Positions 2,779 through 53,733 of a stretch of DNA of 64,000 nt are shown here, piece by piece. Under the pieces are notes generated by a model that did no database searches, was not told the DNA's origin, and worked only from the letters and a program-made list of their open reading frames with translations. Position 1 is the stretch's first letter, and each line of letters opens with the position of its first letter. This DNA is from Bacteroidetes bacterium GWF2_38_335 (GTDB taxonomy: Bacteria > Bacteroidota > Bacteroidia > Bacteroidales > GWF2-38-335). Position numbers and translations under genes: made by a program. The stretch covers positions 67,839-131,838 of the forward strand of contig MEOH01000005.1 in NCBI GenBank assembly GCA_001769535.1. Reading direction: 5' to 3'.

Positions 2779-3165
2779 ATGATAAATTTTATAATTGTTG
2801 ATGATGACCGCATGATCATTAAGCTGATCGAAGATTTTGCCTCGAAAGTGAATTTTCTGAATTATAAAGGTTCTTATACCTCTGTGGTTGATGCACTTAA
2901 TGATAATGCATCCGAAGATATTGACTTAATTTTCCTTGATGTTGAATTGCCCGAAATGTCAGGAATTGAATATTTGAAAAATTTCAGAAAAAAGCCAATG
3001 ATCATCATGATTTCAACCTATCCCGACTATGCGGTTGATGCATTTGAATACGAGGCGGTGGATTTTCTCTTAAAACCATTCGTCTTTTCCAGGTTTTTCA
3101 GAAGCGTTCAGAAAGCAGTGAAAATGAATAAATTTTTGGAAATGCAATTTAACGAGGAAGAATAG
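2779..3165 (+). CDS. Stand-alone receiver-domain response regulator (LytR/AlgR-like REC, no output domain)
   Basis: IIVDDD, LIFLDVELPEMSG and FLLKPF motifs; 128 aa only. Confidence 0.8.
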   Translation: MINFIIVDDDRMIIKLIEDFASKVNFLNYKGSYTSVVDALNDNASEDIDLIFLDVELPEMSGIEYLKNFRKKPMIIMISTYPDYAVDAFEYEAVDFLLKPFVFSRFFRSVQKAVKMNKFLEMQFNEEE

Positions 3166-18780: not shown

Positions 18781-18805
18781 GCAACTTAATAACCAATCTG
18801 TCGTC
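18781..18805 (+). promoter_or_regulatory. Putative ECF promoter 1 (upstream of the ECF gene itself)
   Basis: GCAAC-ttaataaccaatctgt-CGTC, 16-nt spacer. Confidence 0.7.
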
Positions 18806-18827
18806 ATAAGATAGAATAAAAAAGTTT

Positions 18828-19403
18828 ATGGAGTTTTCAGAAAGACCTGAATTAATTCAAATTGTACACGGCTGCGTAAAAGACGACCGTAAGTGTCAGC
18901 AAAAACTGCATGAGCTTTATTATGGAAAAATGTTGTCGGTTTGCTATCGTTATGCAAGTGATATGGATGAGGCAAAGGATATTTTGCAGGATGGCTTTAT
19001 CAAGGTTTTTCAGCGATTAAAATCATACGAATTCAAAGGCTCCCTCGAAGGATGGATCAGAAGAATCATGGTAAACAATGCCATTGACTTTGTGCGAAAG
19101 AAAAAAGAGCTGGTTTTTTCGCTTGATGACGATCACAGGATAGACAATTTAAAAGAAGACAGTGAAGAAGATTTTGAGGCAGAAAATTATTCCAGGTTAA
19201 AAGCTGAAGTAATTATGAATCTTCTGCAAAAACTTTCTCCGGCATATAAAATGGTATTTAATATGTACGTACTCGAAAATTATTCTCATAAGGAAATTGC
19301 AGATGAACTGGGCATTAGCATTGGAACATCAAAGTCCAATCTTGCCAAAGCAAAATTCAGGTTAAAGGAACTTTTTGACGAATATCAACATGGGAAATTT
19401 TAA
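18828..19403 (+). CDS. ECF RNA polymerase sigma factor
   Basis: Region 2 (EAKDILQDGFIKVF, GWIRRIMVNNAID) and region 4 (LSPAYKMVFNMY, YSHKEIADELGISIGTSKSNL). Confidence 0.95.
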   Translation: MEFSERPELIQIVHGCVKDDRKCQQKLHELYYGKMLSVCYRYASDMDEAKDILQDGFIKVFQRLKSYEFKGSLEGWIRRIMVNNAIDFVRKKKELVFSLDDDHRIDNLKEDSEEDFEAENYSRLKAEVIMNLLQKLSPAYKMVFNMYVLENYSHKEIADELGISIGTSKSNLAKAKFRLKELFDEYQHGKF

Positions 19404-19409
19404 TTTCAG

Positions 19410-19434
19410 GCAACTATTTTAAAAACCTTACGTC
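19410..19434 (+). promoter_or_regulatory. Putative ECF promoter 2
   Basis: GCAAC-tattttaaaaacctta-CGTC, 16-nt spacer. Confidence 0.7.
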
Positions 19435-19460
19435 TGTTTTATAGATTAAAGAATAAAAAA

Positions 19461-20732
19461 TTGAAAGAAAATTTAGAAAATATTGACAACTTTATTAAGA
19501 ATCAGCTTGATTCTCATGAATTTCCATATGATGGAAATGAGTGGCTGAAACTTGATAAAAAGATGTCCTCACCAGGACAAAGTCAATTCTTTAATCCAAG
19601 AAACTTTTTTATTGCCTCTGCTGTAACAATTGGAATCGTTGCAACAGTACTTCTTGTAAATACAGGAAATGAGGATGAAAACCGTGCAACTCAAAATAAA
19701 AATATCACTGAGCAGGTAAAAGTCTCTGAACAAGTAAACGGTCAGAATGTTATTCAAATCAAGCAACCTGAGAAAACTGATGTTGCAAATGAGAATCACA
19801 CAACTGTTACCCTTGAAAAACAAACTTTGCCCGATAACAATTTTAAAAATGAGATTGTAATTGAAAAACAGGATAACCGTAAACAAGGGAATGATGTAAA
19901 TAATTCAAACCAACCACCGGTTAACTGCAATAATAAAACTGAAAAGGGAATTCCAAACCAAAAGTTTCCATGTGCCCTGTTCAGAACAGATGTTAAAGAA
20001 GGATGTGCTCCTGTAACCGTGAAATTCACTCCGTTTGAGAAATGTGATACAGCGGTGTACCTTTGGGATTTTGGCGATGGGTCCGTGTCATCCGACATGA
20101 CTGCAACACATACATTTACTGATGCAGGAAAATACGATATCTCCCTGACTGTAAAATACTTCAAATCGGAAAAAATTGTTTCTAAATTCGCAGCAGAAGA
20201 AATAAGTGCACTAAAAACACCCGAAGTTAATTTCTCATATGAATCTGAGGGTGGGAAAATTTCTTTCACTGCCATGTCTGACATCACAAACAGATTTAGT
20301 TGGAGTTTCGGTGATGGAAATTCATCAAAGGAAATAAATCCGGAGCACCTGTACACCAATTCCGGAAAATATAGAGTGTCGCTTAAAGCACAGGCAATTA
20401 ACGGATGTGAAAATTCTTATGAGGAAAAAATTACCGTAGATCTTATTCCTGCCTTCGAAATGCCTGATGCATTTACCCCCAACGGCGACGGAAGAAATGA
20501 TTATTTTGGTCCGGTTGTCAATGACCTAGAATTAGTGAAATTTGAAATGGAAATCTACAATAAACTTGGCCAGATTGTTTATAAAACCACTTCTTTTGAC
20601 CAGCCATGGGACGGAAGAGTGTTGGGTAGCAACAAAATGTGCGATGCCGGAGTGTATGTGTGGCGAGTAAAAACTACCGATAAATACGGAAATTCAGACA
20701 ATTCCCAGGGATCTTTTACTCTTGTCAGATAA
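19461..20732 (+). CDS. Putative anti-sigma factor: short N-terminal domain, TM helix, low-complexity linker, two PKD domains, type-B T9SS CTD
   Basis: Follows the ECF gene; IDNFIKNQLDSHEFPYDGNEWLKL; TM FFIASAVTIGIVATVLLV; WDFGDG and WSFGDG; PDAFTPNGDGRNDYF...IYNKLG...WDG...GSFTLVR; TTG start. Confidence 0.75.
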   Translation: MKENLENIDNFIKNQLDSHEFPYDGNEWLKLDKKMSSPGQSQFFNPRNFFIASAVTIGIVATVLLVNTGNEDENRATQNKNITEQVKVSEQVNGQNVIQIKQPEKTDVANENHTTVTLEKQTLPDNNFKNEIVIEKQDNRKQGNDVNNSNQPPVNCNNKTEKGIPNQKFPCALFRTDVKEGCAPVTVKFTPFEKCDTAVYLWDFGDGSVSSDMTATHTFTDAGKYDISLTVKYFKSEKIVSKFAAEEISALKTPEVNFSYESEGGKISFTAMSDITNRFSWSFGDGNSSKEINPEHLYTNSGKYRVSLKAQAINGCENSYEEKITVDLIPAFEMPDAFTPNGDGRNDYFGPVVNDLELVKFEMEIYNKLGQIVYKTTSFDQPWDGRVLGSNKMCDAGVYVWRVKTTDKYGNSDNSQGSFTLVR

Positions 20733-20950
20733 CCACCTGTTTTCATTATCTTTTCAGACAGATTTTTAACTAAGTTATTTCACTCAATTTTTCTTTGAAT
20801 AAAAATCCGTATGACTACGGATATTAATTTTTTATCAATGAAAATTATACATTCGTCTACGAAATAGTACTGCTTATTTTAATGCATGAAAAACTTTTAT
20901 AACAAATTATTTTTCATTATATTAGACTCGTAAAATAAAATAAAAAGTAG

Positions 20951-20975
20951 GCAACCAAAACAACAAGGTATCGTC
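20951..20975 (+). promoter_or_regulatory. Putative ECF promoter 3
   Basis: GCAAC-caaaacaacaaggtat-CGTC, 16-nt spacer. Confidence 0.7.
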
Positions 20976-21021
20976 TTCTACTTAAGTACTTAATATTAGT
21001 GTTCAATTAATTGATAAACAC

Positions 21022-21591
21022 ATGAAAAACTATTTCTTACCCTTATTCTTACTTATGGTATTTTGCCATGGTATCAACGCTCAGGAAAACAGGATTGAAT
21101 TTAAGGCAAACACCCTTGGTGAAAAAATCGCTGTTGAAAATCCGGGTTTCAGAGCTGTTTCTTTTAATTTGTTTGGTGTAATCAATGAAACCAAAAGAAC
21201 AGAAATTGAAAATCTGTTCAAAAATGAAGAATTATTCAAGCGTGTTCAGATCACCATTGACGGAAAATGTTTTATGCTGCTGAATGAAAGCATTACTGCA
21301 GACCTGCTAAGGGCTCAGTATCTTATGCCCAATATGGTTGATTATGATTTTGTTTCTGTTGTTATCAAAGATCAAAGTTTGATTTCCAAAGGTCAGATAA
21401 TTCCGGAAGACTTCCCCAAATTTGTTGACACAGGAAATCCTGAATCTGACAATGCCACATTTAAAACTGCAAAAGATAAATGGATTCAGGAAAACCCTGA
21501 AAGGTATGATATGATGCACAATACCCAGAAAAATGAAGAAGAAAAACTTCGGGAGCAAATTATCAAACTTGAAAAAACCAAAACTAACTAA
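21022..21591 (+). CDS. Small exported hypothetical protein (module 1)
   Basis: Signal peptide ending in NAQ; C-terminal PEDFPKFVDTGNPESDNATFKTAKDKWIQENPERY. Confidence 0.8.
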   Translation: MKNYFLPLFLLMVFCHGINAQENRIEFKANTLGEKIAVENPGFRAVSFNLFGVINETKRTEIENLFKNEELFKRVQITIDGKCFMLLNESITADLLRAQYLMPNMVDYDFVSVVIKDQSLISKGQIIPEDFPKFVDTGNPESDNATFKTAKDKWIQENPERYDMMHNTQKNEEEKLREQIIKLEKTKTN

Positions 21592-21615
21592 CCACCACCC
21601 CAAAACTAATAAACC

Positions 21616-24600
21616 ATGAAAAAATTAATTTTTTTAATCGTTTTTGTAAGCTTATTACAGCTGCAAAATACCATGGCCCAATGTTCTAATTGTAATTCCA
21701 ATTTTCCGGGAGGTACTGCTTCAACAACATCAAGTACCCTAACGACGGTAACTACAGCTGGATGGGGAGGCGATTATTCCTATTACAATGTTGTTGCAGG
21801 ACAAACCTATACCTGGCAAACATGCGGAAGTACTTATGATACGCAACTCACCCTGTTTCAAAATGTTTGCAACGGAACATACCTGGCATACAATGACGAT
21901 GCCTGCGGAACTCAATCCATTATTACCTGGACTGCAACATTTACCGGTACTGTGGCTTTGTTGTTAAGTCAATACCCTTGCACAACCGGAACTACATCAG
22001 CCACGATACAGTGGGCATGTACAACATGCAGTGCAGCTCCCCCAATTACAGTAACCGGGTGCACAGGAACATTTTATGATTTGGGTGGTACGGGAAACTA
22101 TTCAAACAGTGAATCACAGGTCTGGACATTTTGTCCTGACAATCCCGGTTCATTGATGCAAATAAATTTTACGACATGGAGTCCCGAACCCGGAAACAAT
22201 AATGACCAGCTACTCGTCTACAATGGGAACAGCACTGCCGCCCCGTATATGCTGGGCGGTGATGGACTAAATCCCTTAGGCCTAGTGCAGGCGTCACCCC
22301 CGCCAACCAATACATCGGGGTGTCTTACTTTTGATTGGAGTTCAGATGGAGCTACTACCGCTGCCGGTTGGGTTGCCACCATAAACTGCATTGACCCCTG
22401 TCAGGATGTTGTTGCTGTTTGGAACGGCTCAACTCCTGCTGCCGTTTGGGATGCGGTTGATGGCGCTTATTACATTAATATTTGTCAGGGTGGTACGGTT
22501 ACATTTAATGCAACAGCTAATTACCCCGAAAACAATACCAGTTATACACAGAGTAATGCCACTTCCACTTTTCATTGGGATTTTGATGATGGAACATCTT
22601 CAAATGGCCAGTCAGTATCTCATACTTTCCCAACTTCAGGTGGCTATGATATCGACTTAACAGTTACTGATGTCAATGGTTGTGTAAATGCAAATGATAT
22701 TGGCGTTCGTGTAAGGGTTTCAACTACCCCCGATTTTACAGGTACCACAGTTAGTGACAATACAATTTGTGTTGGCCAGTGTGCTACTCTTACAGGCGTT
22801 GTTACTCCTGTAATGTGGCAATATCCCAGTAGCCAGACTTTAGCAGGAACAACATTCCTCCCTGATGGCTCAGGTGTTTCTTATACAACCGGTTTAACTT
22901 TTGATGAATTTAATCCTGGTCAAACTGTTACTTCAATAAATGATATTGCACAGATTTGCCTTACAATGGAGCATAGCTATCTCGGTGACCTTGATGTGTT
23001 TATTGAATGCCCTAACGGTTCAACTACCAGTCTATTCTATACTTATGGAACTGGTGCAGGGTATACCTATCTTGGTGAAGCAACCGACTTTTCAACTACA
23101 CCCGGTGATGGTTATCAATATTGTTTTGATCCGGCTTCCACAGCTGGAACTTTTGTTGAACTCGTTACTGCAGGAGCTCCAACATACAGTTATACCGATA
23201 ACGACGGAAATGTTGTTACTGCTCATCCATATATCCCTGCCGGCACATACGAGGCAGATGGTTTATGGACGAACCTGATTGGGTGCCCGTTAAATGGAAC
23301 ATGGACAATTCACGTTACTGACCATCTGGGTGCTGATGATGGATACATTTTCTCATGGGGCATCGGATTCGATCCATCCTTGTATCCTTCAATGTGGGAT
23401 TTTACTCCTACAATTGTTTCACAATCATGGTCAGGAAACGGTGTAACCGGTACCAATCCGGCAACCGCTTGTCCAACAGTGGCAGGGGTTCAAAACTATA
23501 CCTATTCTGTTACTGATAATTACGGATGTACTTATACAACGATTGTCCCAATTACAGTCTCATCACTTACTATAACTTCAAGTCAAACCAATGTTACATG
23601 TAATGGTGGAGCCAATGGCACTGCTACCATAACTTCGACCAGCGGGGGTACTGCACCTTATACTTATACATGGTCACCAGCAGTTTCAGCAACTAATAGT
23701 GCTACTGGTCTTGCTGCAGGAACCTATTCGGTAACAGTTACTGATGCTAATGGCTGTGGTGCAATTAGAGTTTTTACTATTACCCAGCCCGCAGCAATGA
23801 CCTTTACAACATCAACAACTCCCGCAAACTGTGGTGCTCCCACAGGAACTGCAACTGTTGGCGCTGTTACAAATGGCACAGCCCCTTATACTTATCTTTG
23901 GGCACCTGGTGGACAAACATCAAATCCTGCTATTAACCTGGCTGCAGGAACTTACACCGTTACAGTTACCGGTGCTAATGGCTGTACTGGAACAAACACT
24001 GCAACAGTTAATGGAACAGGAAGTGTAACTGCAGGATTCACCTCAAACGGGAACCATTGTTTAAATGGTGGTGTCAATAGTTTTTGCTTTACAAATACCG
24101 GAACAACAGGTGTTACTTATTCCTGGACTTTTGGCGATGGTGTTGGAACATCCACACTTCAAAACCCATGTTATACCTATACAAGTACTGGAACTTTTAC
24201 AGTTACTCAAACGGTTATTAATGGTTCATGTACTGCTACCTCAACAATGAATGTGACAGTCTATGCCAATCCAACCGTGACTTTTAACAATACCAATGTA
24301 AACTGCAATGGCTTCTGTAATGGTTCTTCACAGGCTTTACCTGTTGGAGGTTCAGGAACTTATTCATATACATGGAATGATCCTGCTCCTGTTCAAATAA
24401 CTCAGACAGCCACTGCCTTGTGCGCTGGTACATATAATGTTACCATTACTGATACTTACGGATGCTCTGTTGTTGGCACTACAACAATAACTCAGCCCAC
24501 TGCTTTATCTCATTCTGCCGCCAGTTCAAACTGTACCTGTAACGGAGTTTGTAACGGTACAGCTCAGGTTATTGCTTCGGGCGGAACAGGTTCCTATACT

Positions 24601-27600
24601 TATTCATGGTCGCCGGGCGGAGCAACTACATCGAACATCTCAGGGTTATGTCCAAATACCTATACTGTTACAATTTATGATGCAGCTAACCCGGCATGCT
24701 ATCAGACCGAAACGGTTATTATCACCCAACCTGCTGCTATCGTTTTAAGTACATCGGCTGTTAATGCAACATGCGGAATGTCAAATGGTTCAGCTTCAGT
24801 TAGTATTACTTCAGGTGGTACTGCTCCGTTTACTTATGCATGGAATGATCCTGCTCCCATACAGATAACGTCAACTGCAACAGGATTGGCCGCCGGAGCC
24901 TATACGGTTATTGTTACTGATGCAACAGGTTGTACTGCAACCGCAACTGTTAACGTAAATGATAACGGATCACCAACAGCTTCAATCACTGCACAAACCA
25001 ATGTGAATTGTTTTGGAGCATGCACAGGGTCTGCAACAGTTACACTTGGCGGAACCCTGAATCCAAACTTTAACTATGTCTGGTCTTCCGGTTCAAATAC
25101 TCCGGGCTCTCCATTGACAACAAATACTGCTTCAGGTTTATGTGCAGGGGCATTTTCTGTTACTGTTACTGACATTAATGGTTGTATAGCAACGGCTTCG
25201 GGAACAATTACCCAGCCAACTGCTTTAACAGCAACCACAACAACGGTCAGTGCCAATTGCGGACAGGCAAATGGTTCGGCAACAGTCAATCCTTCAGGTG
25301 GAACAGCTCCATATACCATATTTACATGGAACGATCCTGCACCCGTTCAGACAACACAAACAGCAACCGCTTTGGCTGCAGGAACATATTCAGTTACTGT
25401 TACCGACGCTGTTGGTTGTACTTTTACAACAACTGCGACCATTAGCGATATCGGTGGAATTACATCAGTTACCATGACTTCAACCAACGCTCTTTGCAAC
25501 GGGGCCTCAAACGGAACAGCAACTGCTACTCCGGCCGGTGGAACTGCACCATATATCTATACATGGGATGATCCGGCACCAGTTCAGACTACTCAAACAG
25601 CAACCGGACTTGCCGCTGGAACTTATTCAGTTACAGTTACTGATTTGTCTGGCTGTATAATGATTAATACTGTTGTTGTTGGCCAACCAACAGTTGTTAC
25701 GGCATCAATATCTGCATTTACAAATATTACCTGCAACGGTTTATCCAATGGCACGGCAACGGTTGCACCCGGTGGTGGTACTGCTCCTTATACCTATTTG
25801 TGGGCAGCGGGTTCTTCGCCAACCCTTCCAAATAACACTGGGTTACCAGTGGGTACAACAAATGTGACCGTATACGACGCCAATGGATGTACTGCAATGA
25901 CCAGTGTTACTTTGACTCAGCCAACTGCAGTTTCTCTTACAATATCAAGTGTTAACGAAAACTGTTTCCAGTGCAACGGAAGTTCAACCGTTGTGGCTTC
26001 CGGAGGTACAGCTCCATATACTTACCTCTGGCCGGCGTCTGCAGGAAGTCAGACTTCAGCAACTGCAACCGGACTTTGTTCAGGATCATACATTGTTACT
26101 GTAACTGATAACCAGGGTTGTACTGCGACTATTACCGGAACAGTGTCAAATATTCCTGCTGGTTTAGCTACCATCTCAAGCTTTACAAATGTTTCATGTA
26201 ATGGATTATGCAATGGTCAGGCAACCGTAAGTATCGGAGGGGGAATTTCTCCATACACTTATCAATGGCCGGCATCTGCAGGAAGCCAGACAACTGCTAC
26301 AGCTACCAATCTTTGTCCGGGAACTTATGTCCCATCAGTTATTGATGCTGTTGGATGTACAGTAACTTCATCGGTTACAATTACTGAACCAGCTGCACTT
26401 ACTGGAAATCTTACAATTGATCATCTTACCTGTCACGATATATGTGATGGCATTATCACTGTAAATCCAACTGGAGGTACTCCGGTTTACACTTATGCAT
26501 GGCAGGGAATGCTAAATACAACGCCAACTGTTAATTCACTTTGCCCTGGAAATTATACTGTAACTGTATCTGATGCCAATTCATGTACCATGGTTTTAAA
26601 TGGTACTGTGAATAATGCGGATGAAATATTTATTACCGGTGTTATTACAAATGCAAACTGTGGTCAGCCCGATGGAGCAATTGACATTACAGTAACCGGA
26701 GGAACAGGTCCATATACTTTTACATGGATTACCACCGCAACACCAACTCTTGAAGATCAGACAGGTCTTGCTGCCAACAATTATATTGTTGTTGTAACTG
26801 ACTCCAAAGGATGTACTCAACAACAAACATTTACTGTTGGTGAGATTGATGGTCCGACCTCTTTAATATCTGCATTTACAAATGTTTCCTGTAATGGAAG
26901 CTGTGATGGTACAGCTACTGTTACTGCATCCGGTGGATCAGGATTGTTTGGCTATCAATGGTCAGCTTCTGCAGGTGGCCAGCTAATTGCAAATGCTACA
27001 AATCTTTGCGTAGGATCGCATAGTGTTACAGTTACAGATATTTCAACAGGATGTATTACAATTTCATCAGTTACAATCACTGAACCTGCAGTTCTTGCTT
27101 ACACCATTACTGATATTGATCCTGAGTGCAACAGTATCTATGGAGCGTGCAACGGATCGGCTTCTGCAAATATTGTTGGCGGAACAACTCCATATACATA
27201 TTTGTGGAGTGGACCAGGTTTGGGTGCCGGAGCATCAACCACTACTGTAAGTAACCTTTGTGGAGGCAACTATTCTCTGCTAATAACTGATGCTCATGGT
27301 TGTACAAATCTTCAAACATTTACACTTGTTGAGCCTTCATTCATTAATCTTACCTATTCAACCGTTGCTGAACAGTGCAGTGGTGCATGCGACGGTCAGG
27401 CCGCTGTATTGCCTTCGGGTGGAACTCCGGGCTACACCTATCAGTGGAGTGCCACAGCTGGTGGGCAAACATCACAAACAGCACTTGGGCTTTGTGCAGG
27501 TACTTATCAGGTTACTGTTTATGACGATAACCTTTGTGCCCAGACAGGCAGCGTTACCGTAACAACTCCTAACCCGATGTCTTTTGTAAGCATTATCGTC

Positions 27601-30600
27601 GATCATGTTGATTGCTATGGAAACTGCAACGGAAGTGTGACAGTGAATGTTACAGGTGGCGTGCCACCATATACTTTTGGCTGGGATAATGGTTCTACAG
27701 CACAGAACCCAACCGGTCTTTGCCAGGGTGTGTACAACGTAACTGTTTATGACGACAATGACTGTTTTATTACATCTAACGTAATTGTTAACCAGCCTCC
27801 ATTGCTTACTTTGACTACTATTCCAACTAACGTAACCTGTTATGGATATGCAAACGGAAGTGTCATTGCCAATATCGGCGGTGGTCAGCCACCTTATGAT
27901 GTTGTTTGGTCACCATCAGGATCTTCTGCAACTACTCAGACAAACTTAAATCCGGGTACCTATTGCATCAGTATAACTGATTTCAACGGATGTACTATTT
28001 CAGATTGTGAAACCATTACCGGACCAACATTACTCGATATTGTTAACGTAGTTACCAATGATGCTACCTGCGGAGACAGCAATGGTTCAATAAATATTGG
28101 TATTGCAGGCGGTGTTCCTGGTTATGATATTGAATGGAGCAACGGCTGTGTTTCTGTAAATAACCCAAGCATACCTTCCGGTTGCTATGGTGTTACCATT
28201 ACTGATAATAATAACTGTGAAGCCGATACAACAATTTGTATCAACAACCTTGACGGACCGGTAATTACCGGAATTGTAAAAACCAATGTTACCTGTTTTG
28301 GCTATAGTGATGGTACGGCCACGGTTTCTTATACTGGAATTGCTCCTTTGACTGTTGAATGGTCAGATGGTCAGGTTGGAGATCTTGCAGATAATCTTCC
28401 TCCCGGAAATATAACCGTTGTTGTTACCGATGCAAACGGTTGTGAGGTTAGCCAGTTGGTTAACATTACTTCGCCTGCTCTGTTAAATGCCAATATCAAC
28501 TCATTTACCAATGTTCAGTGTTACGGCGCTTGCGATGGAACCGCCAATGTGTTTGTTGGTGGAGGTTCCATACCTTATTCTTATTCATGGCCGGTATCTG
28601 GTGACAATACTGCAACGGTTACCGGACTTTGTCAGGGTGTTCATAATGTTATTGTTACAGATATAAATGGATGTACAGCAACAGACAACCAATTAATTTC
28701 ACAGCCAGCTCAGTTTACTGTTTCGGCTACTGTAACCGATGCAACCTGTTTTGGATCTGACAATGGTATAATAACAATAATTTCGACCGGCGGAACACCA
28801 ACACATTTATATAACTGGCTGAATACAGGAACTACAATTTCAACGGATGCAAACCTGTGGCCGGGAAATCACACTGTATGCATTACCGACCAGCATGGTT
28901 GCGATACCTGTTTGACTTATGTTGTTGGTGAGCCCGATCCAATTGCTGCAACTCTTGCATCTGAACCTACTACCTGTGATGAGCCGAACGGAGTCATTTA
29001 TGTGTCGTCGGTTTCTGGCGGAACACCACCATATTCATATTCATGGTCACCTGAGTTTACCACTAATGCTGCCGGAGATATAAACTCTGATGCGCCTGAT
29101 GGAAACTATGTCCTTACCATTTATGATGACCACAACTGTTCACATGTGGTGTCGGGAACGGTAACCGCAGTTCAACCTCCGATTATAGTTAAGATTGATG
29201 TATATAATGCCACTTGTTTCGGTTATACCGATGGCTGGGCTGAAGCGGAAGTTGCTATGGGAACACCACCTTACACATATAACTGGACTCCAACCGGAGG
29301 AGATGGTTTGATAGCTACAGGACTTGGTGAGGGCGCTTATACATTTTATGTAACAGATGCTTCGGGTTGTGTGGCCAATCAAACAATTTACATTTCTGAA
29401 CCTAGTCCGGTTAACCTGACAGTTTCCGGAGAAACAACAATTTGTATCGGACAATCAACGGGTATATCTGCATTTGCAAATGGCGGTCAGCCTCCATATA
29501 CTTTTTACTGGGACGGAGTGCCTTCCACAAACACCACCTATGTTGTATCACCGGATGTGCTAACCTGTTATGATATATCATGTACCGATGCCAATGGCTG
29601 TCCGAATACCCAACCACAGGAAGTTTGTATAGATGTATACCCTGCAATCCACGTTGCAGCAATGACAAACAATCCAATGATCTGTGAAGGATCATCTGCC
29701 AGCATTATTGGTGCTGCAACAGGTGGAAATGGTGGTCCGTATGAATATTACTGGAGCACAGGAACATCCCATCTTTCAACTATTTCAGTTTCACCAACCA
29801 CCACAACCACATATCTTGTTTATGCTCAGGATAATTGCGGTTCACCTTCAGATTCTGCGACTGTAACAATAGAGGTTGATTATGCTCCGGAAATTAACGT
29901 GATTCCTGATACTTCAGGATGTGAACCGATAACCGTTCATTTCCATAACTTTATTGTTGATGAAACCGGAGTAAGCTATATATGGAATTTTGGTGATCCT
30001 TCATCGGGAACATTAAATATTTCAAATGATTCAGACCCGATACATATATATGAACACTCCGGAGATTTCGATGTAACTTTGACAGCAATATCACCAAGTG
30101 GTTGTGAAAGCGAAGCTACCTACGAAAACCTCATTAAGGTTAATGAAGTTCCTGTTGCTGATTTCCATGCAAATCCATGGGTAACTACCGTTTTCCACTC
30201 GAGAATTGAGTTTATGGATATGTCATCTGACGAAGTCACCGATTGGTATTGGGATTTTGGAGATACTTACCATTCAATAATTGAAAATCCTGAACATGAA
30301 TACAATGTGGCAGGAACATTCCCGGTAATGCTGGTAGTTTCAACCGAGTATGGCTGTATTGACACAGTTATACACGAGGTGATTATTCAGGAAGAAGTTA
30401 CTTTCTGGGCGCCGACAGCTATTACACCCGGCAACGGAGGAAGAAATGAAAACTTTATTGTGATGGGAATCGGATTGGACGAAGAGACTTACCATTTGTA
30501 CATTTATGACAGGTGGGGTGAAGTGATTTTTGAGACCACCGATTTTCAACAGTACTGGAACGGCAGGTTCGAAGGAGAGGGTGAGTTTGTTGAACTCGGA

Positions 30601-30681
30601 ACCTACACTTGGCTTGTTACCATCAGGGATATAAATGGAGTAAACCATGAATTTGCCGGTACAGTAACAGTAATCAGATAA
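21616..30681 (+). CDS. Giant T9SS type-B cargo surface protein (3021 aa): CUB-like, PKD, P-domain-like, SprB repeats, type-B CTD
   Basis: Signal peptide; CTGTFYDLGG (CUB-like); WDFDDG (PKD); EHSYLGDL; many TNVxCNGxxNGxATV..GGTAPYTYxW..TVTDANGC units; IYDRWGEVIF..WNG..GTYTW..GTVTVIR. Confidence 0.9.
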   Translation: MKKLIFLIVFVSLLQLQNTMAQCSNCNSNFPGGTASTTSSTLTTVTTAGWGGDYSYYNVVAGQTYTWQTCGSTYDTQLTLFQNVCNGTYLAYNDDACGTQSIITWTATFTGTVALLLSQYPCTTGTTSATIQWACTTCSAAPPITVTGCTGTFYDLGGTGNYSNSESQVWTFCPDNPGSLMQINFTTWSPEPGNNNDQLLVYNGNSTAAPYMLGGDGLNPLGLVQASPPPTNTSGCLTFDWSSDGATTAAGWVATINCIDPCQDVVAVWNGSTPAAVWDAVDGAYYINICQGGTVTFNATANYPENNTSYTQSNATSTFHWDFDDGTSSNGQSVSHTFPTSGGYDIDLTVTDVNGCVNANDIGVRVRVSTTPDFTGTTVSDNTICVGQCATLTGVVTPVMWQYPSSQTLAGTTFLPDGSGVSYTTGLTFDEFNPGQTVTSINDIAQICLTMEHSYLGDLDVFIECPNGSTTSLFYTYGTGAGYTYLGEATDFSTTPGDGYQYCFDPASTAGTFVELVTAGAPTYSYTDNDGNVVTAHPYIPAGTYEADGLWTNLIGCPLNGTWTIHVTDHLGADDGYIFSWGIGFDPSLYPSMWDFTPTIVSQSWSGNGVTGTNPATACPTVAGVQNYTYSVTDNYGCTYTTIVPITVSSLTITSSQTNVTCNGGANGTATITSTSGGTAPYTYTWSPAVSATNSATGLAAGTYSVTVTDANGCGAIRVFTITQPAAMTFTTSTTPANCGAPTGTATVGAVTNGTAPYTYLWAPGGQTSNPAINLAAGTYTVTVTGANGCTGTNTATVNGTGSVTAGFTSNGNHCLNGGVNSFCFTNTGTTGVTYSWTFGDGVGTSTLQNPCYTYTSTGTFTVTQTVINGSCTATSTMNVTVYANPTVTFNNTNVNCNGFCNGSSQALPVGGSGTYSYTWNDPAPVQITQTATALCAGTYNVTITDTYGCSVVGTTTITQPTALSHSAASSNCTCNGVCNGTAQVIASGGTGSYTYSWSPGGATTSNISGLCPNTYTVTIYDAANPACYQTETVIITQPAAIVLSTSAVNATCGMSNGSASVSITSGGTAPFTYAWNDPAPIQITSTATGLAAGAYTVIVTDATGCTATATVNVNDNGSPTASITAQTNVNCFGACTGSATVTLGGTLNPNFNYVWSSGSNTPGSPLTTNTASGLCAGAFSVTVTDINGCIATASGTITQPTALTATTTTVSANCGQANGSATVNPSGGTAPYTIFTWNDPAPVQTTQTATALAAGTYSVTVTDAVGCTFTTTATISDIGGITSVTMTSTNALCNGASNGTATATPAGGTAPYIYTWDDPAPVQTTQTATGLAAGTYSVTVTDLSGCIMINTVVVGQPTVVTASISAFTNITCNGLSNGTATVAPGGGTAPYTYLWAAGSSPTLPNNTGLPVGTTNVTVYDANGCTAMTSVTLTQPTAVSLTISSVNENCFQCNGSSTVVASGGTAPYTYLWPASAGSQTSATATGLCSGSYIVTVTDNQGCTATITGTVSNIPAGLATISSFTNVSCNGLCNGQATVSIGGGISPYTYQWPASAGSQTTATATNLCPGTYVPSVIDAVGCTVTSSVTITEPAALTGNLTIDHLTCHDICDGIITVNPTGGTPVYTYAWQGMLNTTPTVNSLCPGNYTVTVSDANSCTMVLNGTVNNADEIFITGVITNANCGQPDGAIDITVTGGTGPYTFTWITTATPTLEDQTGLAANNYIVVVTDSKGCTQQQTFTVGEIDGPTSLISAFTNVSCNGSCDGTATVTASGGSGLFGYQWSASAGGQLIANATNLCVGSHSVTVTDISTGCITISSVTITEPAVLAYTITDIDPECNSIYGACNGSASANIVGGTTPYTYLWSGPGLGAGASTTTVSNLCGGNYSLLITDAHGCTNLQTFTLVEPSFINLTYSTVAEQCSGACDGQAAVLPSGGTPGYTYQWSATAGGQTSQTALGLCAGTYQVTVYDDNLCAQTGSVTVTTPNPMSFVSIIVDHVDCYGNCNGSVTVNVTGGVPPYTFGWDNGSTAQNPTGLCQGVYNVTVYDDNDCFITSNVIVNQPPLLTLTTIPTNVTCYGYANGSVIANIGGGQPPYDVVWSPSGSSATTQTNLNPGTYCISITDFNGCTISDCETITGPTLLDIVNVVTNDATCGDSNGSINIGIAGGVPGYDIEWSNGCVSVNNPSIPSGCYGVTITDNNNCEADTTICINNLDGPVITGIVKTNVTCFGYSDGTATVSYTGIAPLTVEWSDGQVGDLADNLPPGNITVVVTDANGCEVSQLVNITSPALLNANINSFTNVQCYGACDGTANVFVGGGSIPYSYSWPVSGDNTATVTGLCQGVHNVIVTDINGCTATDNQLISQPAQFTVSATVTDATCFGSDNGIITIISTGGTPTHLYNWLNTGTTISTDANLWPGNHTVCITDQHGCDTCLTYVVGEPDPIAATLASEPTTCDEPNGVIYVSSVSGGTPPYSYSWSPEFTTNAAGDINSDAPDGNYVLTIYDDHNCSHVVSGTVTAVQPPIIVKIDVYNATCFGYTDGWAEAEVAMGTPPYTYNWTPTGGDGLIATGLGEGAYTFYVTDASGCVANQTIYISEPSPVNLTVSGETTICIGQSTGISAFANGGQPPYTFYWDGVPSTNTTYVVSPDVLTCYDISCTDANGCPNTQPQEVCIDVYPAIHVAAMTNNPMICEGSSASIIGAATGGNGGPYEYYWSTGTSHLSTISVSPTTTTTYLVYAQDNCGSPSDSATVTIEVDYAPEINVIPDTSGCEPITVHFHNFIVDETGVSYIWNFGDPSSGTLNISNDSDPIHIYEHSGDFDVTLTAISPSGCESEATYENLIKVNEVPVADFHANPWVTTVFHSRIEFMDMSSDEVTDWYWDFGDTYHSIIENPEHEYNVAGTFPVMLVVSTEYGCIDTVIHEVIIQEEVTFWAPTAITPGNGGRNENFIVMGIGLDEETYHLYIYDRWGEVIFETTDFQQYWNGRFEGEGEFVELGTYTWLVTIRDINGVNHEFAGTVTVIR

Positions 30682-30700
30682 ATATTTTAACACATTTTAC

Positions 30701-30733
30701 TAAAAAGGTTGCTTATATTGGGCAACCTTTTTA
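30701..30733 (+). terminator. Intrinsic terminator
   Basis: TAAAAAGGTTGC...GCAACCTTTTTA inverted repeat. Confidence 0.8.
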
Positions 30734-30755
30734 TTTTTAGAAAAAATTTTAAAGC

Positions 30756-32339
30756 ATGGAAGAAAAAAAATTTACCAAATCTCTGATCCTTTTTATTTCT
30801 TTTATTGAAGGAGGAGCTGTGATGTTCACCGAATTAATCGGAGCCAAAGTAGTTGCTCCATTTTTTGGAACATCATTATATGTTTGGTCTTCGGCTCTGG
30901 GAATTACATTGGGAAGTCTGGCAATCGGATACTATTCGGGAGGCGTCATTTCAAAGAAAATGAAAAACCTTAATCTGTTGCTTTACTTGTTTATGATTGC
31001 AGGATTTCTAATTCTTTTAATACCATTTTCAGGTAAATGGATCATGCTAAATACTATTGACATGTCTGTTCAGACTGGTGTTACCATCTCCATGCTAGTT
31101 TTTCTTGCACCTCCATTGGTGATATGCGGAATGATGTCGCCAATGATAATAAATTATCTTACGGATCAGGCTAAAATGTCGGGAAGGATTTCAGGATTGG
31201 TGTATTCTGTTTCCACTTTGGGCGGAATACTGTTTACTTATCTCACTGGATTTTACCTGTTGCCTGTTTTTGGGATTATAAAACCAACCATAATATTTGG
31301 AACTTTGATTATTTTTATGGGATTGATTCTGTTGCTGTTAAATAAGAAATATTTGTCATTGACAATGCTTTTAATTCTGATCCTATTTAACCCCTTTTCC
31401 AAATTAAAAAAGCCCGAAATAACTCAAAATGCCTATTACGTAATTTTATATGATAGTGAAGGATTGTTAGGTCAGGTTAAAGTAATTGAATATATGTACC
31501 AAACATTCGAAAGAGGAGCAAAAAGGGCGAGGGGACTGCTTGTGAATAATACCGGTCAGACTATCATGGATGTGGCGAATCCTCAATACAGTTTGTGGGA
31601 TTATTCTTTTTTCTTCCCAAATGCAGCAAGTATTTATCCTGAAAAATCTGATGCACTGATTCTTGGATTGGGCGGTGGAACATTATATAAGCAATTTGAG
31701 CGGTTAAAATTTAATATTGATGTTGTGGAACTTGATGAGCGAATCAGAGATGTGGCCTTTAAGTATTTTGCTGTGGATAAAAAAGCAAATATAGTTATTG
31801 ATGATGCACGACATTATTTGATGACTTCTGATAAAAAATATGACGTCATAACTTTTGACCTTTTTCTTAGTGAAACACCTCCAAGTCATTTGCTTACAGT
31901 CGAATGTTTCGAAAGAGTAAATGAATTGCTGAATGAAAAGGGCATGCTGATGATTAATTTTTATGGCTTTTTAACCGGTGATATCGGAATAGCATCCCGA
32001 AGTGTATATGCTACTTTGAAAGAGTCATTTAAATATGTTGATATCTGTGCCACTCCGGCAAAAGATGAACACAGCAGAAACCTGATTTTTATTGCAAGTC
32101 AGTCAGATCTTGATTTCACAAATACAAACTATTCCGAACCTGATTTGACTGTGGTCACAAATCTTGAAAAATACTTTGTAAACACTTCTGAAATAGACTT
32201 TTCAGATGCAATGGTTTTAACTGATGATTGTCCTGTTCTTGAGAACTTATATTTGGATGCCGCAATTGAATGGCGAAAATCGAGCAATAAAATATATTGT
32301 GAAAATTTCATAAAACAAAACATCCAGCTTTTTAAGTAA
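30756..32339 (+). CDS. Fused membrane domain / spermidine-synthase-like SAM-binding protein
   Basis: About 7 N-terminal TM segments; LILGLGGG, VVELDE, IDDARHY, YDVITFDLF, LTDDCP. Confidence 0.85.
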   Translation: MEEKKFTKSLILFISFIEGGAVMFTELIGAKVVAPFFGTSLYVWSSALGITLGSLAIGYYSGGVISKKMKNLNLLLYLFMIAGFLILLIPFSGKWIMLNTIDMSVQTGVTISMLVFLAPPLVICGMMSPMIINYLTDQAKMSGRISGLVYSVSTLGGILFTYLTGFYLLPVFGIIKPTIIFGTLIIFMGLILLLLNKKYLSLTMLLILILFNPFSKLKKPEITQNAYYVILYDSEGLLGQVKVIEYMYQTFERGAKRARGLLVNNTGQTIMDVANPQYSLWDYSFFFPNAASIYPEKSDALILGLGGGTLYKQFERLKFNIDVVELDERIRDVAFKYFAVDKKANIVIDDARHYLMTSDKKYDVITFDLFLSETPPSHLLTVECFERVNELLNEKGMLMINFYGFLTGDIGIASRSVYATLKESFKYVDICATPAKDEHSRNLIFIASQSDLDFTNTNYSEPDLTVVTNLEKYFVNTSEIDFSDAMVLTDDCPVLENLYLDAAIEWRKSSNKIYCENFIKQNIQLFK

Positions 32340-32426
32340 TTTGTCAATTTATTTTGTCATTTTATTAATAAAAATGCACTGTTCATATAATTGTTATTAA
32401 TTCATTATTTCTTTTTTCAATTTAAA

Positions 32427-32451
32427 GCAACCCTAAGTAATATTATACGTC
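32427..32451 (+). promoter_or_regulatory. Putative ECF promoter 4
   Basis: GCAAC-cctaagtaatattata-CGTC, 16-nt spacer. Confidence 0.7.
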
Positions 32452-32489: not shown

Positions 32490-33719
32490 TTGCATTCTGA
32501 AGAAACAAATCTAAATGAATTTGTTGTAAGTGAATTGGATAAATTCCAGTTTCCTTATGATTATAATGAATGGAATAAGATTGACCGCAAACTAAATCTT
32601 AAACATCGTAATAATTTAATTGTTAAGGGATTAGTTATAACATCAGTTGCCGGTTCCATCCTGTTATCTTCTAGTTATTTTTTAAAATCCGATAAAAACA
32701 GCCAACCTGAAAGGTCGGTAGAAGTACTTATAAATGACTCCGTACAGGACGCTGGAAATAATCTTGTATCCGTATTCTCCGAAAATAATCCCGAAAAATT
32801 TATTTCTGAAACAAAACAAGAAAATAATGTTACCACAATAGCAGAAGATTATCCTTCACCGGTAATCCTCGCAGAAACCAACACTTTGACCAGTGAAAAA
32901 ATAGTTAAAGAGGAAGAACAGTCCGAATCAAAAGAAATTCTTCAGAATGAAATTGATTTAATCCCTTATTTTAATACCTCTGAGAAATCGGGCTGTTCTC
33001 CTTTAACTGTGGAATTTGTTCCTTACGAAAAAGCTGAGGACATTATTTATTACTGGGAATTTAGTGACGGTTCATCATCTACCGAAAAATCTCCTTCTTA
33101 TACCTTTTCTGAAGAAGGGGAGTATTTTGTCAGGCTAACTATTAAGAAATTCAAAAAAGAAAAATTGTTTACGTGGACAGCTGAGGTTCCTGTTACAGTC
33201 TACCCGTCTCCTGAAGCAGATTATGAACAAATCAGCGAAAAGAATCCTTATGAATTTGAAGCAGCATCTGTTCCTCAGGGAACCTACCAGTGGCAAATAG
33301 GCAAAAATAACATTTCTGGAAGAAGACTGAAGTATGTATTTGCCGAAGAAGGTTTATACGATGTTGCAATGACTGTTGTAAATGAAAATGGCTGTAAATC
33401 AACAACATCAAAGATCGTTAACGTGACAGATTTAATTCCTTTTCAGAAACCAACGGGATTTTCACCCGATGGGGACGGAATTAATGATTATTATAAACCA
33501 TTGTTTGATGAGAGTACAATTATTGATTATAATCTGCAGATATATGGTTCAACAGGCATGATGGTTTTTGAAACAAATGACATTTCAAAAGCATGGGACG
33601 GAAAAATAATGGGATCTGATAAAACTGCTGAATTTGGCGTTTATGTGTGCATCATTAAAGTGAAAGATATTTATAACGTAACCAAACAAATAAAATATAA
33701 TATTACCCTTTTAAAATAA
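32490..33719 (+). CDS. Second anti-sigma-like TM/PKD/type-B CTD protein (paralog of 19461-20732)
   Basis: LDKFQFPYDYNEWNKIDRKL versus LDSHEFPYDGNEWLKLDKKM; TM; GCSPLTVEF; WEFSDG; PTGFSPDGDGINDY..WDG..ITLLK; TTG start. Confidence 0.75.
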   Translation: MHSEETNLNEFVVSELDKFQFPYDYNEWNKIDRKLNLKHRNNLIVKGLVITSVAGSILLSSSYFLKSDKNSQPERSVEVLINDSVQDAGNNLVSVFSENNPEKFISETKQENNVTTIAEDYPSPVILAETNTLTSEKIVKEEEQSESKEILQNEIDLIPYFNTSEKSGCSPLTVEFVPYEKAEDIIYYWEFSDGSSSTEKSPSYTFSEEGEYFVRLTIKKFKKEKLFTWTAEVPVTVYPSPEADYEQISEKNPYEFEAASVPQGTYQWQIGKNNISGRRLKYVFAEEGLYDVAMTVVNENGCKSTTSKIVNVTDLIPFQKPTGFSPDGDGINDYYKPLFDESTIIDYNLQIYGSTGMMVFETNDISKAWDGKIMGSDKTAEFGVYVCIIKVKDIYNVTKQIKYNITLLK

Positions 33720-33725
33720 TTACTT

Positions 33726-34211
33726 ATGAGACCGAAGATGAGACTTGTTATTTTAATCATCCTAATGACTTTTCAGCAATCAATTTTTGCTCAGGATGAA
33801 CCTGTTCAATTTGAAAAAACAATTGAGTACCAGGATTACAGACATGTATTTTTTGCAATTGACAGAGTAGCAACCGAAGCTGAAGCTAAATACCTTAGCG
33901 AAACTTTTTTGGGAACACCCGGGGTTGTTGATTTTTCAATACAGGAGGGAAAGTATTGTAAGCTTGGGATTAAATATGATAAAACAATTGATGACGTGGC
34001 TGAAGTTCTTAATCAATTTAATTTTAAAATATCCGATGAAATTGCAGTTGCCAATGACAACGACAATAAAAAAGCCGACTATCCGACTCACTATCCTGTA
34101 AGAAAAAGTACCGGAGACCCGGCCAGGGATGAACAAATTTTTCAGGAAGCATACAAATACTGGAAAACTCATTATCCTGAAGAATATAACACATACAAAG
34201 AAAATAAATAG
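33726..34211 (+). CDS. Small exported hypothetical protein (module 2)
   Basis: Signal peptide ending in FAQ; C-terminal PTHYPVRKSTGDPARDEQIFQEAYKYWKTHYPEEY resembles that of 21022-21591. Confidence 0.8.
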   Translation: MRPKMRLVILIILMTFQQSIFAQDEPVQFEKTIEYQDYRHVFFAIDRVATEAEAKYLSETFLGTPGVVDFSIQEGKYCKLGIKYDKTIDDVAEVLNQFNFKISDEIAVANDNDNKKADYPTHYPVRKSTGDPARDEQIFQEAYKYWKTHYPEEYNTYKENK

Positions 34212-53145: not shown

Positions 53146-53733
53146 TTATTTTTTCCATTGAAAAGTTTCAATCAGGTGGATAATATCCTTCTGAATGAAC
53201 TGTAAAACTGGTGCGATAGAATCTTTATTCGGTTTTTCGTTAAAGTAAAGTGCCCCCCTGAAAAAATGGGTAGTGCTGTCGGTAAGGATAAATTGTATTG
53301 CCGATGCAGCATTTCCTTTCAGTTCGTATAACACTCCGTAAACTTTTTTGGAGGTATCTGTAAAATAACTGTCTTTGATGGCTTCAGCTTTAATATTGTG
53401 CTTCTGTAACAGCGTCCAGCTTTCATCAAGATACTTGCTTAAGTTTGTGTCATTGACCATTTTGTAACTGACATTGATATCGGCATTAAATGCGGGAAAA
53501 AAGATATTGATCCAATAAGGTTCGCTGTATGATCCGGTATCTTTAACCACAATAGCATATTCAGGGTATTCGAAGGTGTAAGGGCAATCAGATTCGTACA
53601 AAACATATTTTTTTTCGGGAAGGTCAATCCTGAAATACCCCCTTGGTTTAGGAACAGATGCTTTTTTACAGGAGGCCATAGGCAGCAATAAAACAAGAAA
53701 AAGCAGGAAATATAAAAGATTATTTTTTTTCAT
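53146..53733 (-). CDS. gldD: Gliding motility lipoprotein GldD
   Basis: Lipobox MASC; PKPRGYFRIDLP; GNAASAIQF; TDSTTHFFRGALYF; downstream of gldE. Confidence 0.9.
   Translation of the reverse strand: MKKNNLLYFLLFLVLLLPMASCKKASVPKPRGYFRIDLPEKKYVLYESDCPYTFEYPEYAIVVKDTGSYSEPYWINIFFPAFNADINVSYKMVNDTNLSKYLDESWTLLQKHNIKAEAIKDSYFTDTSKKVYGVLYELKGNAASAIQFILTDSTTHFFRGALYFNEKPNKDSIAPVLQFIQKDIIHLIETFQWKK

Follow-up and report, generated by a model that had tools for sequence, protein, structure and literature searches.

How Bacteroidota choose among hundreds of cargo proteins of their type IX secretion system (T9SS) is largely unknown, and the published circuits, PorXY-SigP and SM6, bear on the T9SS machinery, not on its cargo. 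The question is raised by a 64 kb stretch of the genome of Bacteroidetes bacterium GWF2_38_335 (contig MEOH01000005.1, positions 67,839 to 131,838; hereafter the window), in which four copies of the bipartite motif GCAAC-N16-CGTC accompany a gene for an extracytoplasmic function (ECF) sigma factor, the gene of its putative anti-sigma factor and two modules encoding giant adhesin-like proteins. Are these sites promoters, which sigma factor would read them, and what would they control? With a probability of roughly three in four, we read them as ECF-type promoters recognised by the window's own sigma factor and as members of a regulon that takes in some two dozen T9SS cargo operons across the genome, and we take this sigma factor to be under the control of an anti-sigma factor related to the Dma proteins. 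The features concerned, with protein lengths in amino acids (aa) and distances in nucleotides (nt), are the following.

18781..18805, + strand: P1, exact GCAAC-N16-CGTC and putative promoter of autoregulation; the ECF sigma gene starts 22 nt downstream
18828..19403, + strand: ECF sigma factor, 191 aa (P0003); Sigma70_r2 at residues 28-93 and Sigma70_r4_2 at 128-176 (Pfam); TIGR02937 at 99.4 bits (cut-off 42.9)
19410..19434, + strand: P2, exact GCAAC-N16-CGTC, matching the extended consensus in full; lies in the 57 nt that separate the sigma gene from the anti-sigma gene, with a TTG start 26 nt downstream
19461..20732, + strand: putative anti-sigma factor, 423 aa (P0001); PKD_4, PKD and CHU_C (PF13585 at 55.2 bits, cut-off 27); TIGR04131 at 40.5 bits (cut-off 35)
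20951..20975, + strand: P3, exact GCAAC-N16-CGTC, 46 nt before module 1
32427..32451, + strand: P4, exact GCAAC-N16-CGTC, 38 nt before module 2
32490..33719, + strand: orphan anti-sigma paralogue, 409 aa (P0002); N-terminal module, transmembrane (TM) helix, PKD_4, PKD and CHU_C at 41.7 bits (Pfam)

A preliminary description of this DNA had placed four copies of the motif at 18781, 19410, 20951 and 32427. These are indeed the only exact matches in the window and all lie on the + strand, whereas 100 dinucleotide-preserving shuffles of the window gave a mean of 0.13 matches (standard deviation 0.39, largest 2), with four or more in none of the 100. The same description had the copies lie between genes, 22-46 nt before start codons and with differing spacers, and this also proved right: from P1 to P4 the gaps are 22, 26, 46 and 38 nt, leading to starts at 18828 (ATG), 19461 (TTG), 21022 (ATG) and 32490 (TTG). 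The gene identities that it had given hold as well, the domain matches showing an ECF sigma factor, two paralogous membrane proteins with PKD domains and CHU_C, and two SprB-repeat giants. Because the four spacers are different sequences and the flanks resemble each other only in a short extension (A-R before GCAAC, Y (C/T) after it, T/A after CGTC), the sites are not copies of a repeat.

The sites have the form of known ECF promoters, with an AAC-containing −35 and a CGT-containing −10 that also stand before the sigma factor's own gene, a likeness seen at the sequence level only. It extends to the sigma-E promoters of Streptomyces coelicolor, which the relevant part of PMC6767563 describes as G[GC]AAC[CG]-N16/17-CGTCT and as mapped by S1 nuclease and in vitro transcription, among them cwg (CGCAACC..N..CGTCTT) and hrdD (GGCAACC..N..CGTCTT) in its Table 1; the ECF architecture named by the preliminary description thus has mapped counterparts. 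Streptomyces coelicolor belongs to another phylum and its sigma-E, as presented there, serves a cell-envelope regulon, so that the likeness is one of promoter class, not of kinship. A scan for sigma-70-type promoters was uninformative (45 found versus 49.5 expected), its consensus being that of E. coli. By this likeness and by the conservation described below, the view of the GCAAC-N16-CGTC sites as putative ECF-type promoters holds.

The whole genome (G000; 5.27 Mb in 29 contigs) was then scanned against a crude, self-made gene map of 3775 genes (88% coding, ~12% intergenic). Total and intergenic counts of GCAAC-Nx-CGTC were 17 and 1 for N14, 5 and 1 for N15, 23 and 12 for N16, 29 and 16 for N17, 6 and 2 for N18, and 11 and 0 for N19. 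The excess is confined to intergenic copies with spacers of 16 and 17, of which there are 28, versus four for N14, N15, N18 and N19 combined. A gene on the same strand begins within 200 nt downstream of 24 of these 28, mostly at distances of 14-50 nt; the four intergenic sites left out (C26 416832, C28 1716, C6 63557 and C17 1664) have no such gene. The copies at C9:5270 and C28:1716 are one motif match with the same spacer and flanks, the former within a 1048-aa open reading frame and the latter near a contig end, and this identity probably reflects a duplicated or split gene, not a promoter.

These counts bear on the possibility that the motif is no promoter at all, being instead a chance or compositional feature, the site of some other regulator or the remnant of a repeat. 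The genome totals of 23 and 29, only modestly above those for other spacer lengths, would speak for it, but the contrast of 28 with 4 intergenic copies, their fixed orientation 14-135 nt from starts, their unconserved spacers and flanks, the match in form to mapped promoters in the cited part of PMC6767563 and the persistence of the motif at orthologous genes across species make it extremely unlikely.

What, then, would these promoters control? Cargo was flagged with home-made hidden Markov models (HMMs) of the type A and type B T9SS sorting domains, iterated over the genome, which returned 305 type A and 46 type B proteins (~351 of the 3775 crude genes, 9%). Such a protein is encoded by the first or second gene in 22 of the 24 motif-led operons, and in 18 of 20 when the window sites are set aside, versus a background of 340 among the 2422 genes with an upstream gap of at least 45 nt (14%; binomial p = 3.6e-17). 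The Pfam family Por_Secre_tail backs 10 of the 11 type A calls among these operons, one of the ten below its cut-off. Giant SprB-repeat adhesins make up much of the motif-led cargo; a gingipain-family peptidase, FG-GAP and BNR proteins and another seven type B giants are among the targets. The two exceptions, a MauJ-like gene (181 nt away) and a NUDIX gene (91 nt away), both fall outside the extended consensus and, given this and their distances, probably follow chance matches.

The proposal of a local regulon in the preliminary description accordingly has to be given up, since the genome as a whole has 24 or more gene-proximal sites with a spacer of 16 or 17, among which the four copies in the window form a cluster. 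The check that it had proposed, for an enrichment before T9SS genes, comes out positive for the cargo (22 of 24 operons) and negative for the machinery: upstream of porP-gldKLMN and sprA, the machinery operons checked, there is no xxAAC-N16/17-xGTC, and control of these operons through the motif is rejected.

In a sister species (G001, sigma factor 72% identical), 31 motif sites were found versus 15 for a reversed control. Eighteen of them are intergenic, cargo lies downstream of 14 of the 15 that have downstream genes, and for 12 of these 15 operons the best match in G000 falls within a motif operon. Its syntenic contig carries five sites, before the sigma gene, the anti-sigma gene, a module of 190 aa + 3021 aa orthologous to the pair that follows P3, and two further small genes. 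The extended motif also exceeds its control in two other families of the order, with 10 sites versus 2 in G026 and 12 versus 7 in G024. Counting only the targeted site of each retrieved stretch, cargo follows the gene-proximal sites in 4 of 7 cases in G026 and 7 of 10 in G024, and two further G026 sites precede a small gene and an open-ended giant. P1 has counterparts upstream of the orthologous sigma genes in G001, G026 and G024; the adhesin modules are not adjacent to the sigma gene in other lineages. The motif set is kept in the sister species and, partly, in the two other families.

A scan of public genomes, with one genome per species, gave 80 loci with relatives of the window sigma factor, the closest of them in Flavobacteriales metagenome-assembled genomes (MAGs) labelled Vicingaceae, Crocinitomix, Fluviicola, Lishizhenia and Cryomorpha. 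In 20 of the 80, all with a sigma identity of at least 47%, the next gene encodes a protein of 404-435 aa that shares its N-terminus with P0001 and has a type B sorting domain. GCA[AT]C-N15-17-CGT[CT] occurs within 260 nt upstream of the sigma gene at all 20 of these loci versus 6 of the other 60, and at three of these six, which are close orthologues, the gene downstream is cut off or uncalled; the exact GCAAC..CGTC is found in 12 of the 20, with none for the spacer controls. This conservation is what would be expected from the autoregulation that the preliminary description had suggested. Its other suggestion, a separate promoter between the sigma and anti-sigma genes, is upheld in G001, which has a counterpart of P2, and goes no further, as the counterpart is absent from all 20 of the more distant orthologous loci; among the loci compared, this copy is specific to the genus.

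With 191 aa and only sigma domains 2 and 4, P0003 has the make-up of an ECF (group IV) sigma factor, for which ~170-200 aa are typical. Its nearest solved structures are SigE, SigW and sigma-E, and its NCBIfam matches other than TIGR02937 are generic or below cut-off (TIGR02985 at 90.5 versus 126.4, NF058625 at 76.6 versus 130). Seventeen ECF-like genes are found in G000. The one at 18828-19403 alone has a partner with a sorting domain, and it alone among them has the exact motif upstream. The −10 tetramer follows the partner type, with CGT[CT] at 17 of 22 loci with type B partners and CATC at 25 of 61 other loci with a GCAAC −35. The window sigma factor is therefore most probably the reader of the CGTC sites, this being the most economical reading of the pattern.

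Several findings weigh against this reading. The genome encodes eight close ECF paralogues, most of which share a GCAAC(C)-like −35 upstream, and C10_358052 is preceded by GCAGC-N16-CGTC. Sites with GCAAC-N16/17 and either TGTC (8 of 16) or AGTC (9 of 14) at the −10 position also precede cargo. In G022, whose sigma factor is 55% identical and has the same type of partner, the −10 is TGTC and CGTC sites show no excess (4 versus 3 for the control). Most cargo genes with an upstream gap lack the motif, which is present on 5 of 29 of type B and 9 of 246 of type A, and this indicates one cargo regulon, enriched in type B giants, and not a master switch. The gene map and both sorting-domain HMMs are moreover home-made, and one giant on contig C22 (2452 aa) is called type A by the HMM and not by Pfam.

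Since the TGTC and AGTC variants precede cargo, the cargo seems to be split among several ECF sigma factors distinguished by the first −10 base, and these variant sites are apparently the regulons of other sigma paralogues. Together with the −35 shared among the paralogues, they also imply that specificities may overlap and that some CGTC sites may have another reader. The variant sites include C6:104620, C15:107248, C10:142011 and C22:307935, and among them are sites before two other ECF paralogues.

Taken to its end, this overlap would mean that the sites are ECF promoters read by another paralogue or by several, the window sigma factor having no private regulon. We consider this unlikely. 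The eight paralogues with their similar −35 boxes and the TGTC and AGTC sites before cargo are in its favour, and so are two precedents, a study of Flavobacterium psychrophilum raising the same caveat for its promoter class SM6 in the part cited here (PMC9723704), and most of the sigma-E promoters of S. coelicolor being, by the portion of PMC6767563 concerned, only partly dependent on sigma-E. Such a reading leaves aside, however, that the −10 tetramer tracks the sigma subfamily, that the upstream motif accompanies 20 of 20 sigma genes with type B partners versus 6 of 60 others, and that in G000 the exact motif precedes no other ECF gene. Reading of the CGTC sites by the window sigma factor remains our preferred account.

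Among known circuits, SM6 is similar in being a start-site-mapped, T9SS-linked class of ECF-type promoters of the Flavobacteriia with a CGT box at −10, and its targets include one sigma/anti-sigma operon. The comparison is limited to the −10, and the responsible sigma factor is given as unassigned in F. psychrophilum. In contrast to the motif described here, SM6 drives the T9SS components GldN and PorU, while the sprB operon of that species uses sigma-54 and SM5 promoters (all from the cited portion of PMC9723704). The PorXY-SigP-PorA circuit of Porphyromonas gingivalis likewise has an autoregulated ECF sigma factor tied to the T9SS; within the text of PMC7712824 referred to, SigP is activated by PorX, has no known anti-sigma factor and targets the T9SS machinery, whereas the window sigma factor would target cargo.

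How would the window sigma factor be controlled? The partner gene lies directly after the sigma gene, or overlaps it, in all 24 orthologous pairs. Its product in the window, P0001, consists of an N-terminal module of ~40 aa, a helix at ~48-66 preceded by K/R, a ~110-aa linker rich in N/Q/K/E (67-175), whose disorder is judged from composition only, two PKD domains and CHU_C. This layout is uniform in 24 orthologues, with 404-435 residues in total and, in 23 orthologues, 252-287 residues from the end of the TM helix to the sorting domain, a constancy that would fit a spatial constraint such as the span of the periplasm. A C-terminal type B sorting domain is recognised in P0001 by both PF13585 and TIGR04131, and in P0002 by PF13585 only (TIGR04131 at 25.2 bits, under the cut-off of 35). 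The N-terminal 70 aa of P0002 match P0001 with an E-value of 7e-7.

Nearly every sigma paralogue in the order is followed or overlapped by a gene for a protein of ~390-490 aa, mostly with OMP_b-brl_2 at the C-terminus. These partners share, in their first 40 residues, the pattern ..ID.LF...L...E..PP...W..I...L, followed by basic residues and a TM helix, and an hhalign comparison of the pre-TM modules of type B and OMP_b-brl_2 partners gave 95.8% (E 8e-9). A word-index search with the N-terminal 70 residues recovered the query alone; a homologue search with N-terminal alignment and the 'longer' lengths returned 10 proteins, mostly with OMP_b-brl_2. A profile of the N-terminal 75 residues matched 18,843 representative proteins at E ≤ 1e-3. 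Of the best 150 representatives, 71 were scanned (49 single-stretch N-terminal matches of at least 350 aa and the 22 best multi-stretch matches), and 42 of these carry OMP_b-brl_2 and none of the 71 CHU_C or Por_Secre_tail. In many members of this N-terminal family (P0008-P0035 and others) the sigma-binding-like module is repeated two to nine times before the membrane helix, and in Chitinophagaceae-type partners the N-terminal motif is doubled.

A model of the complex between the sigma factor and partner residues 1-46 reached interface scores (ipSAE) of 0.81, 0.82 and 0.83 in three runs, versus 0.00 for the best of three controls; 58 of 80 solved complexes reach the mark passed here, as do 2 of 110 mismatched pairs. 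The partner's predicted local distance difference test (pLDDT) does not fall below 73, 88% or more of the contacts recur across the runs, and the predicted contacts involve both sigma domains (sigma residues 21-61 and 116-130/148-149/176). The partner residues with the closest predicted contacts, F21, P22, Y23 and W28, are kept in P0002. This score measures the confidence of the model, and since a sandwich between the sigma domains is a familiar binding mode, passing it shows likeness to solved sigma/anti-sigma pairs, not binding. No solved structure is related in sequence to the N-terminus of P0001 (best E 0.12), and neither P0001 nor P0002 has a classical anti-sigma domain, zinc-finger or other, in the Pfam and NCBIfam scans. 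By the complex model and the hhalign match, the gene product after the sigma gene is a plausible anti-sigma factor, as the preliminary description had proposed, with a model-supported binding of sigma by its N-terminus.

The comparison that suggests itself is with the Dma family, restricted to Bacteroidota, whose sigma partners form the ECF21 family, likewise found only in Bacteroidota and with its gene adjoining that of a Dma-family partner (PMC13088901). By the passage of PMC10927553 concerned, residues 1-40 of Dma1 are enough to pull down Das1. The window locus is similar in the order of a sigma gene and then a partner with a homologous N-terminal module of ~40 residues, one inner-membrane helix and a long, apparently disordered periplasmic linker; that the module would bind sigma is indicated in P0001 by this homology and by the complex model. 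The homology was established with OMP_b-brl_2 partners of Dma-type architecture. P0003, in turn, is 38-44% identical to sigma factors of the same order that have OMP_b-brl_2 partners, while its own partner is Dma-like only in the N-terminal half. The 8-stranded outer-membrane barrel of Dma proteins (OMP_b-brl_2) is not found by Pfam in P0001, P0002 or the orthologues at loci L002, L004 and L005, its place in P0001 being taken by PKD-PKD and the T9SS type B sorting domain. With a sorting domain instead of a barrel, the far end would reach the outer membrane or the surface through the T9SS and not through the barrel assembly machinery (BAM). The regulons would differ as well, comprising vesiculation genes (NigD) for Dma and T9SS cargo here.

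A more conservative view would take the 423-aa and 409-aa proteins as ordinary T9SS cargo with an odd N-terminal anchor, the sigma factor being controlled otherwise. PKD and CHU_C domains are those of many cargo proteins and no classical anti-sigma domain was found. This view, which we hold to be very unlikely, nevertheless has to face a partner gene adjoining or overlapping the sigma gene in 24 of 24 pairs, an N-terminus whose 40 aa are homologous to the Dma-type module, a complex model that passes while its controls stay at 0.00, and a cytoplasmic N-terminus followed by a TM helix in place of a signal peptide. We therefore retain the reading of P0001 as a putative anti-sigma factor. At another locus, L174 (NVVI01000001.1, a Flavobacteriales MAG), an ECF sigma gene is followed by one for a 373-aa protein with a Dma-like N-terminal pattern and a type A sorting domain (home-made HMM), which may represent a second, independent fusion of the anti-sigma module to a secretion tag.

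On these grounds we propose that the cytoplasmic 40-residue N-terminus of the anti-sigma factor would hold sigma at the inner membrane, one helix crossing that membrane, the long disordered linker spanning the periplasm, and PKD-PKD and the type B sorting domain lying at the far end. Once freed, sigma would transcribe its own gene from P1, in positive autoregulation, make extra anti-sigma message via P2 (in this genus only), transcribe module 1 from P3 and module 2, which opens with the second anti-sigma-like gene, from P4, and drive about twenty cargo operons elsewhere in the genome. With the anti-sigma genes 19461-20732 and 32490-33719 both in the regulon, the circuit would include negative feedback; joined to the positive autoregulation, this dependence of two anti-sigma genes on sigma would make the response a pulse that limits itself.

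The state of the far end, whether engaged by the T9SS, exported, anchored or left in the periplasm, would then set the stability of the anti-sigma factor and hence the release of sigma. With a T9SS sorting domain at the far end and T9SS cargo as the output, what happens to that domain at the T9SS is the likeliest input. The nearest precedent is in P. gingivalis, where the sorting domain of PorA is not only a secretion tag but also a periplasmic signal, serving as a ligand for the kinase PorY, and where, by the heading of section 2.8, inner-membrane-tethered PorA still signals (cited part of PMC12152298). As described there, PorA is a separate cargo protein that binds PorY, whereas in the window the sorting domain is fused to the putative anti-sigma factor. 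Two findings tell against a coupling to secretion. By inspection, P0001 is without a cleavable signal peptide and has a conserved 45-residue cytoplasmic module before its sole hydrophobic stretch. Beside the window adhesins, no PorP/SprF-like gene is found on contig C5, the genome having 22 PF11751 matches, whereas a dedicated PorP/SprF-like protein is encoded near T9SS type B cargo in the account given in part of PMC9143113. The architecture as a whole hints at a coupling, of either sign, between secretion and expression.

In a more specific and tentative version, which we regard as possible though doubtful, the anti-sigma factor would itself be a client of the T9SS, its sorting domain competing with cargo. 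Held on a tether of conserved length, this domain would be pulled through, engaged or anchored by the translocon, and this event, or its failure, would lead to cleavage of the tether and release of sigma. Such a checkpoint would resemble that of FlgM and sigma-28, where the anti-sigma factor that represses the late genes of a secretion machine is also exported by that machine as a substrate. FlgM is soluble and exported whole by the type III apparatus; P0001, in contrast, is membrane-anchored, which makes export of the whole protein impossible without cleavage. The checkpoint would have been built by swapping the outer-membrane barrel of a Dma protein for a secretion tag, and the feedback would be tuned by two extra copies of the anti-sigma promoter together with the orphan paralogue, encoded within an adhesin operon. 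If this version is true, the genes for giant adhesins and other cargo would be transcribed in step with the secretion capacity that is free.

The two modules behind P3 and P4, and the hairpins that accompany module 1, are composed as follows.

20805..20822, + strand: terminator-like hairpin after the anti-sigma gene, from a consensus scan only; weak, 7 pairs, 3 GC
21022..21591, + strand: small exported protein of module 1, 189 aa; no Pfam or NCBIfam match
21616..30681, + strand: SprB-repeat giant adhesin-like protein, 3021 aa; SprB in 22 stretches, PKD, and CHU_C at 2933-3018 (Pfam)
30701..30733, + strand: strong terminator-like hairpin ending module 1; 15 pairs, then a T-run
33726..34211, + strand: small exported protein of module 2, 161 aa; family of 21022-21591 (jackhmmer E 2e-67 at convergence)
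34233..50696, + strand: SprB-repeat giant, 5487 aa; SprB in 49 stretches (residues 1-4999, Pfam), C-terminal CHU_C by the home-made HMM

The orthologue of the 3021-aa giant in G001 is 66% identical over its full length, and the gene order of module 2 recurs in G026 as a 405-aa type B protein, a 142-aa protein and a giant. The small proteins belong to a family of signal-peptide proteins of 111-189 aa with eight copies in G000, the other six lying at C17:19699-20181, C22:139199-139675, C10:507670-508011, C26:407726-408061, C22:147217-147666 and C10:49637-50143. Each of the eight genes is directly upstream (−28 to +24 nt) of a gene for a giant T9SS cargo protein of 1043-5487 aa, six of type B and two of type A. 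They share the C-terminal motif FP.FIDTGNPE.DN..F..AK..WIE.NPE.Y. No Pfam or NCBIfam family and only four database relatives were found for this family; the best atlas score was 0.84 with a structural TM of at most 0.42 by query, which is not meaningful, and the AlphaFold model is poor (pLDDT 61, predicted TM-score (pTM) 0.35).

The descending arm of the hairpin at 30701-30733 contains GGCAACC, a resemblance to the −35 box that looks coincidental, since no CGTC lies at the right distance. Three further genes of the window have no associated motif copy: a fused gene at 30756-32339, between the modules, resembling the major facilitator superfamily (MFS) and spermidine synthase (NF037959, 177 bits); gldD at 53146-53733 on the − strand, encoding a gliding lipoprotein (PF25593); and a gene at 58866-63989 on the − strand for a 1707-aa type A cargo protein with Ig_7 domains.

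Published work already covers promoters of the ECF type, T9SS-linked control by ECF sigma factors and the design of Dma proteins. In the literature outside subscription-only papers, we found neither an anti-sigma factor with a T9SS sorting domain, nor a promoter motif marking a cargo regulon, nor a description of the pairing of a small exported protein with giant cargo. For the giant SprB-like adhesins and other cargo, the locus yields a defined promoter motif together with candidates for the sigma factor and the sensor, in a system conserved across several families of the Flavobacteriales. It would also extend the Dma class, in that the same sigma-holding module and tether can bear a T9SS sorting domain instead of a barrel. 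This suggests a general design, in which the far end of an anti-sigma factor reports on one particular route of export through the cell envelope.

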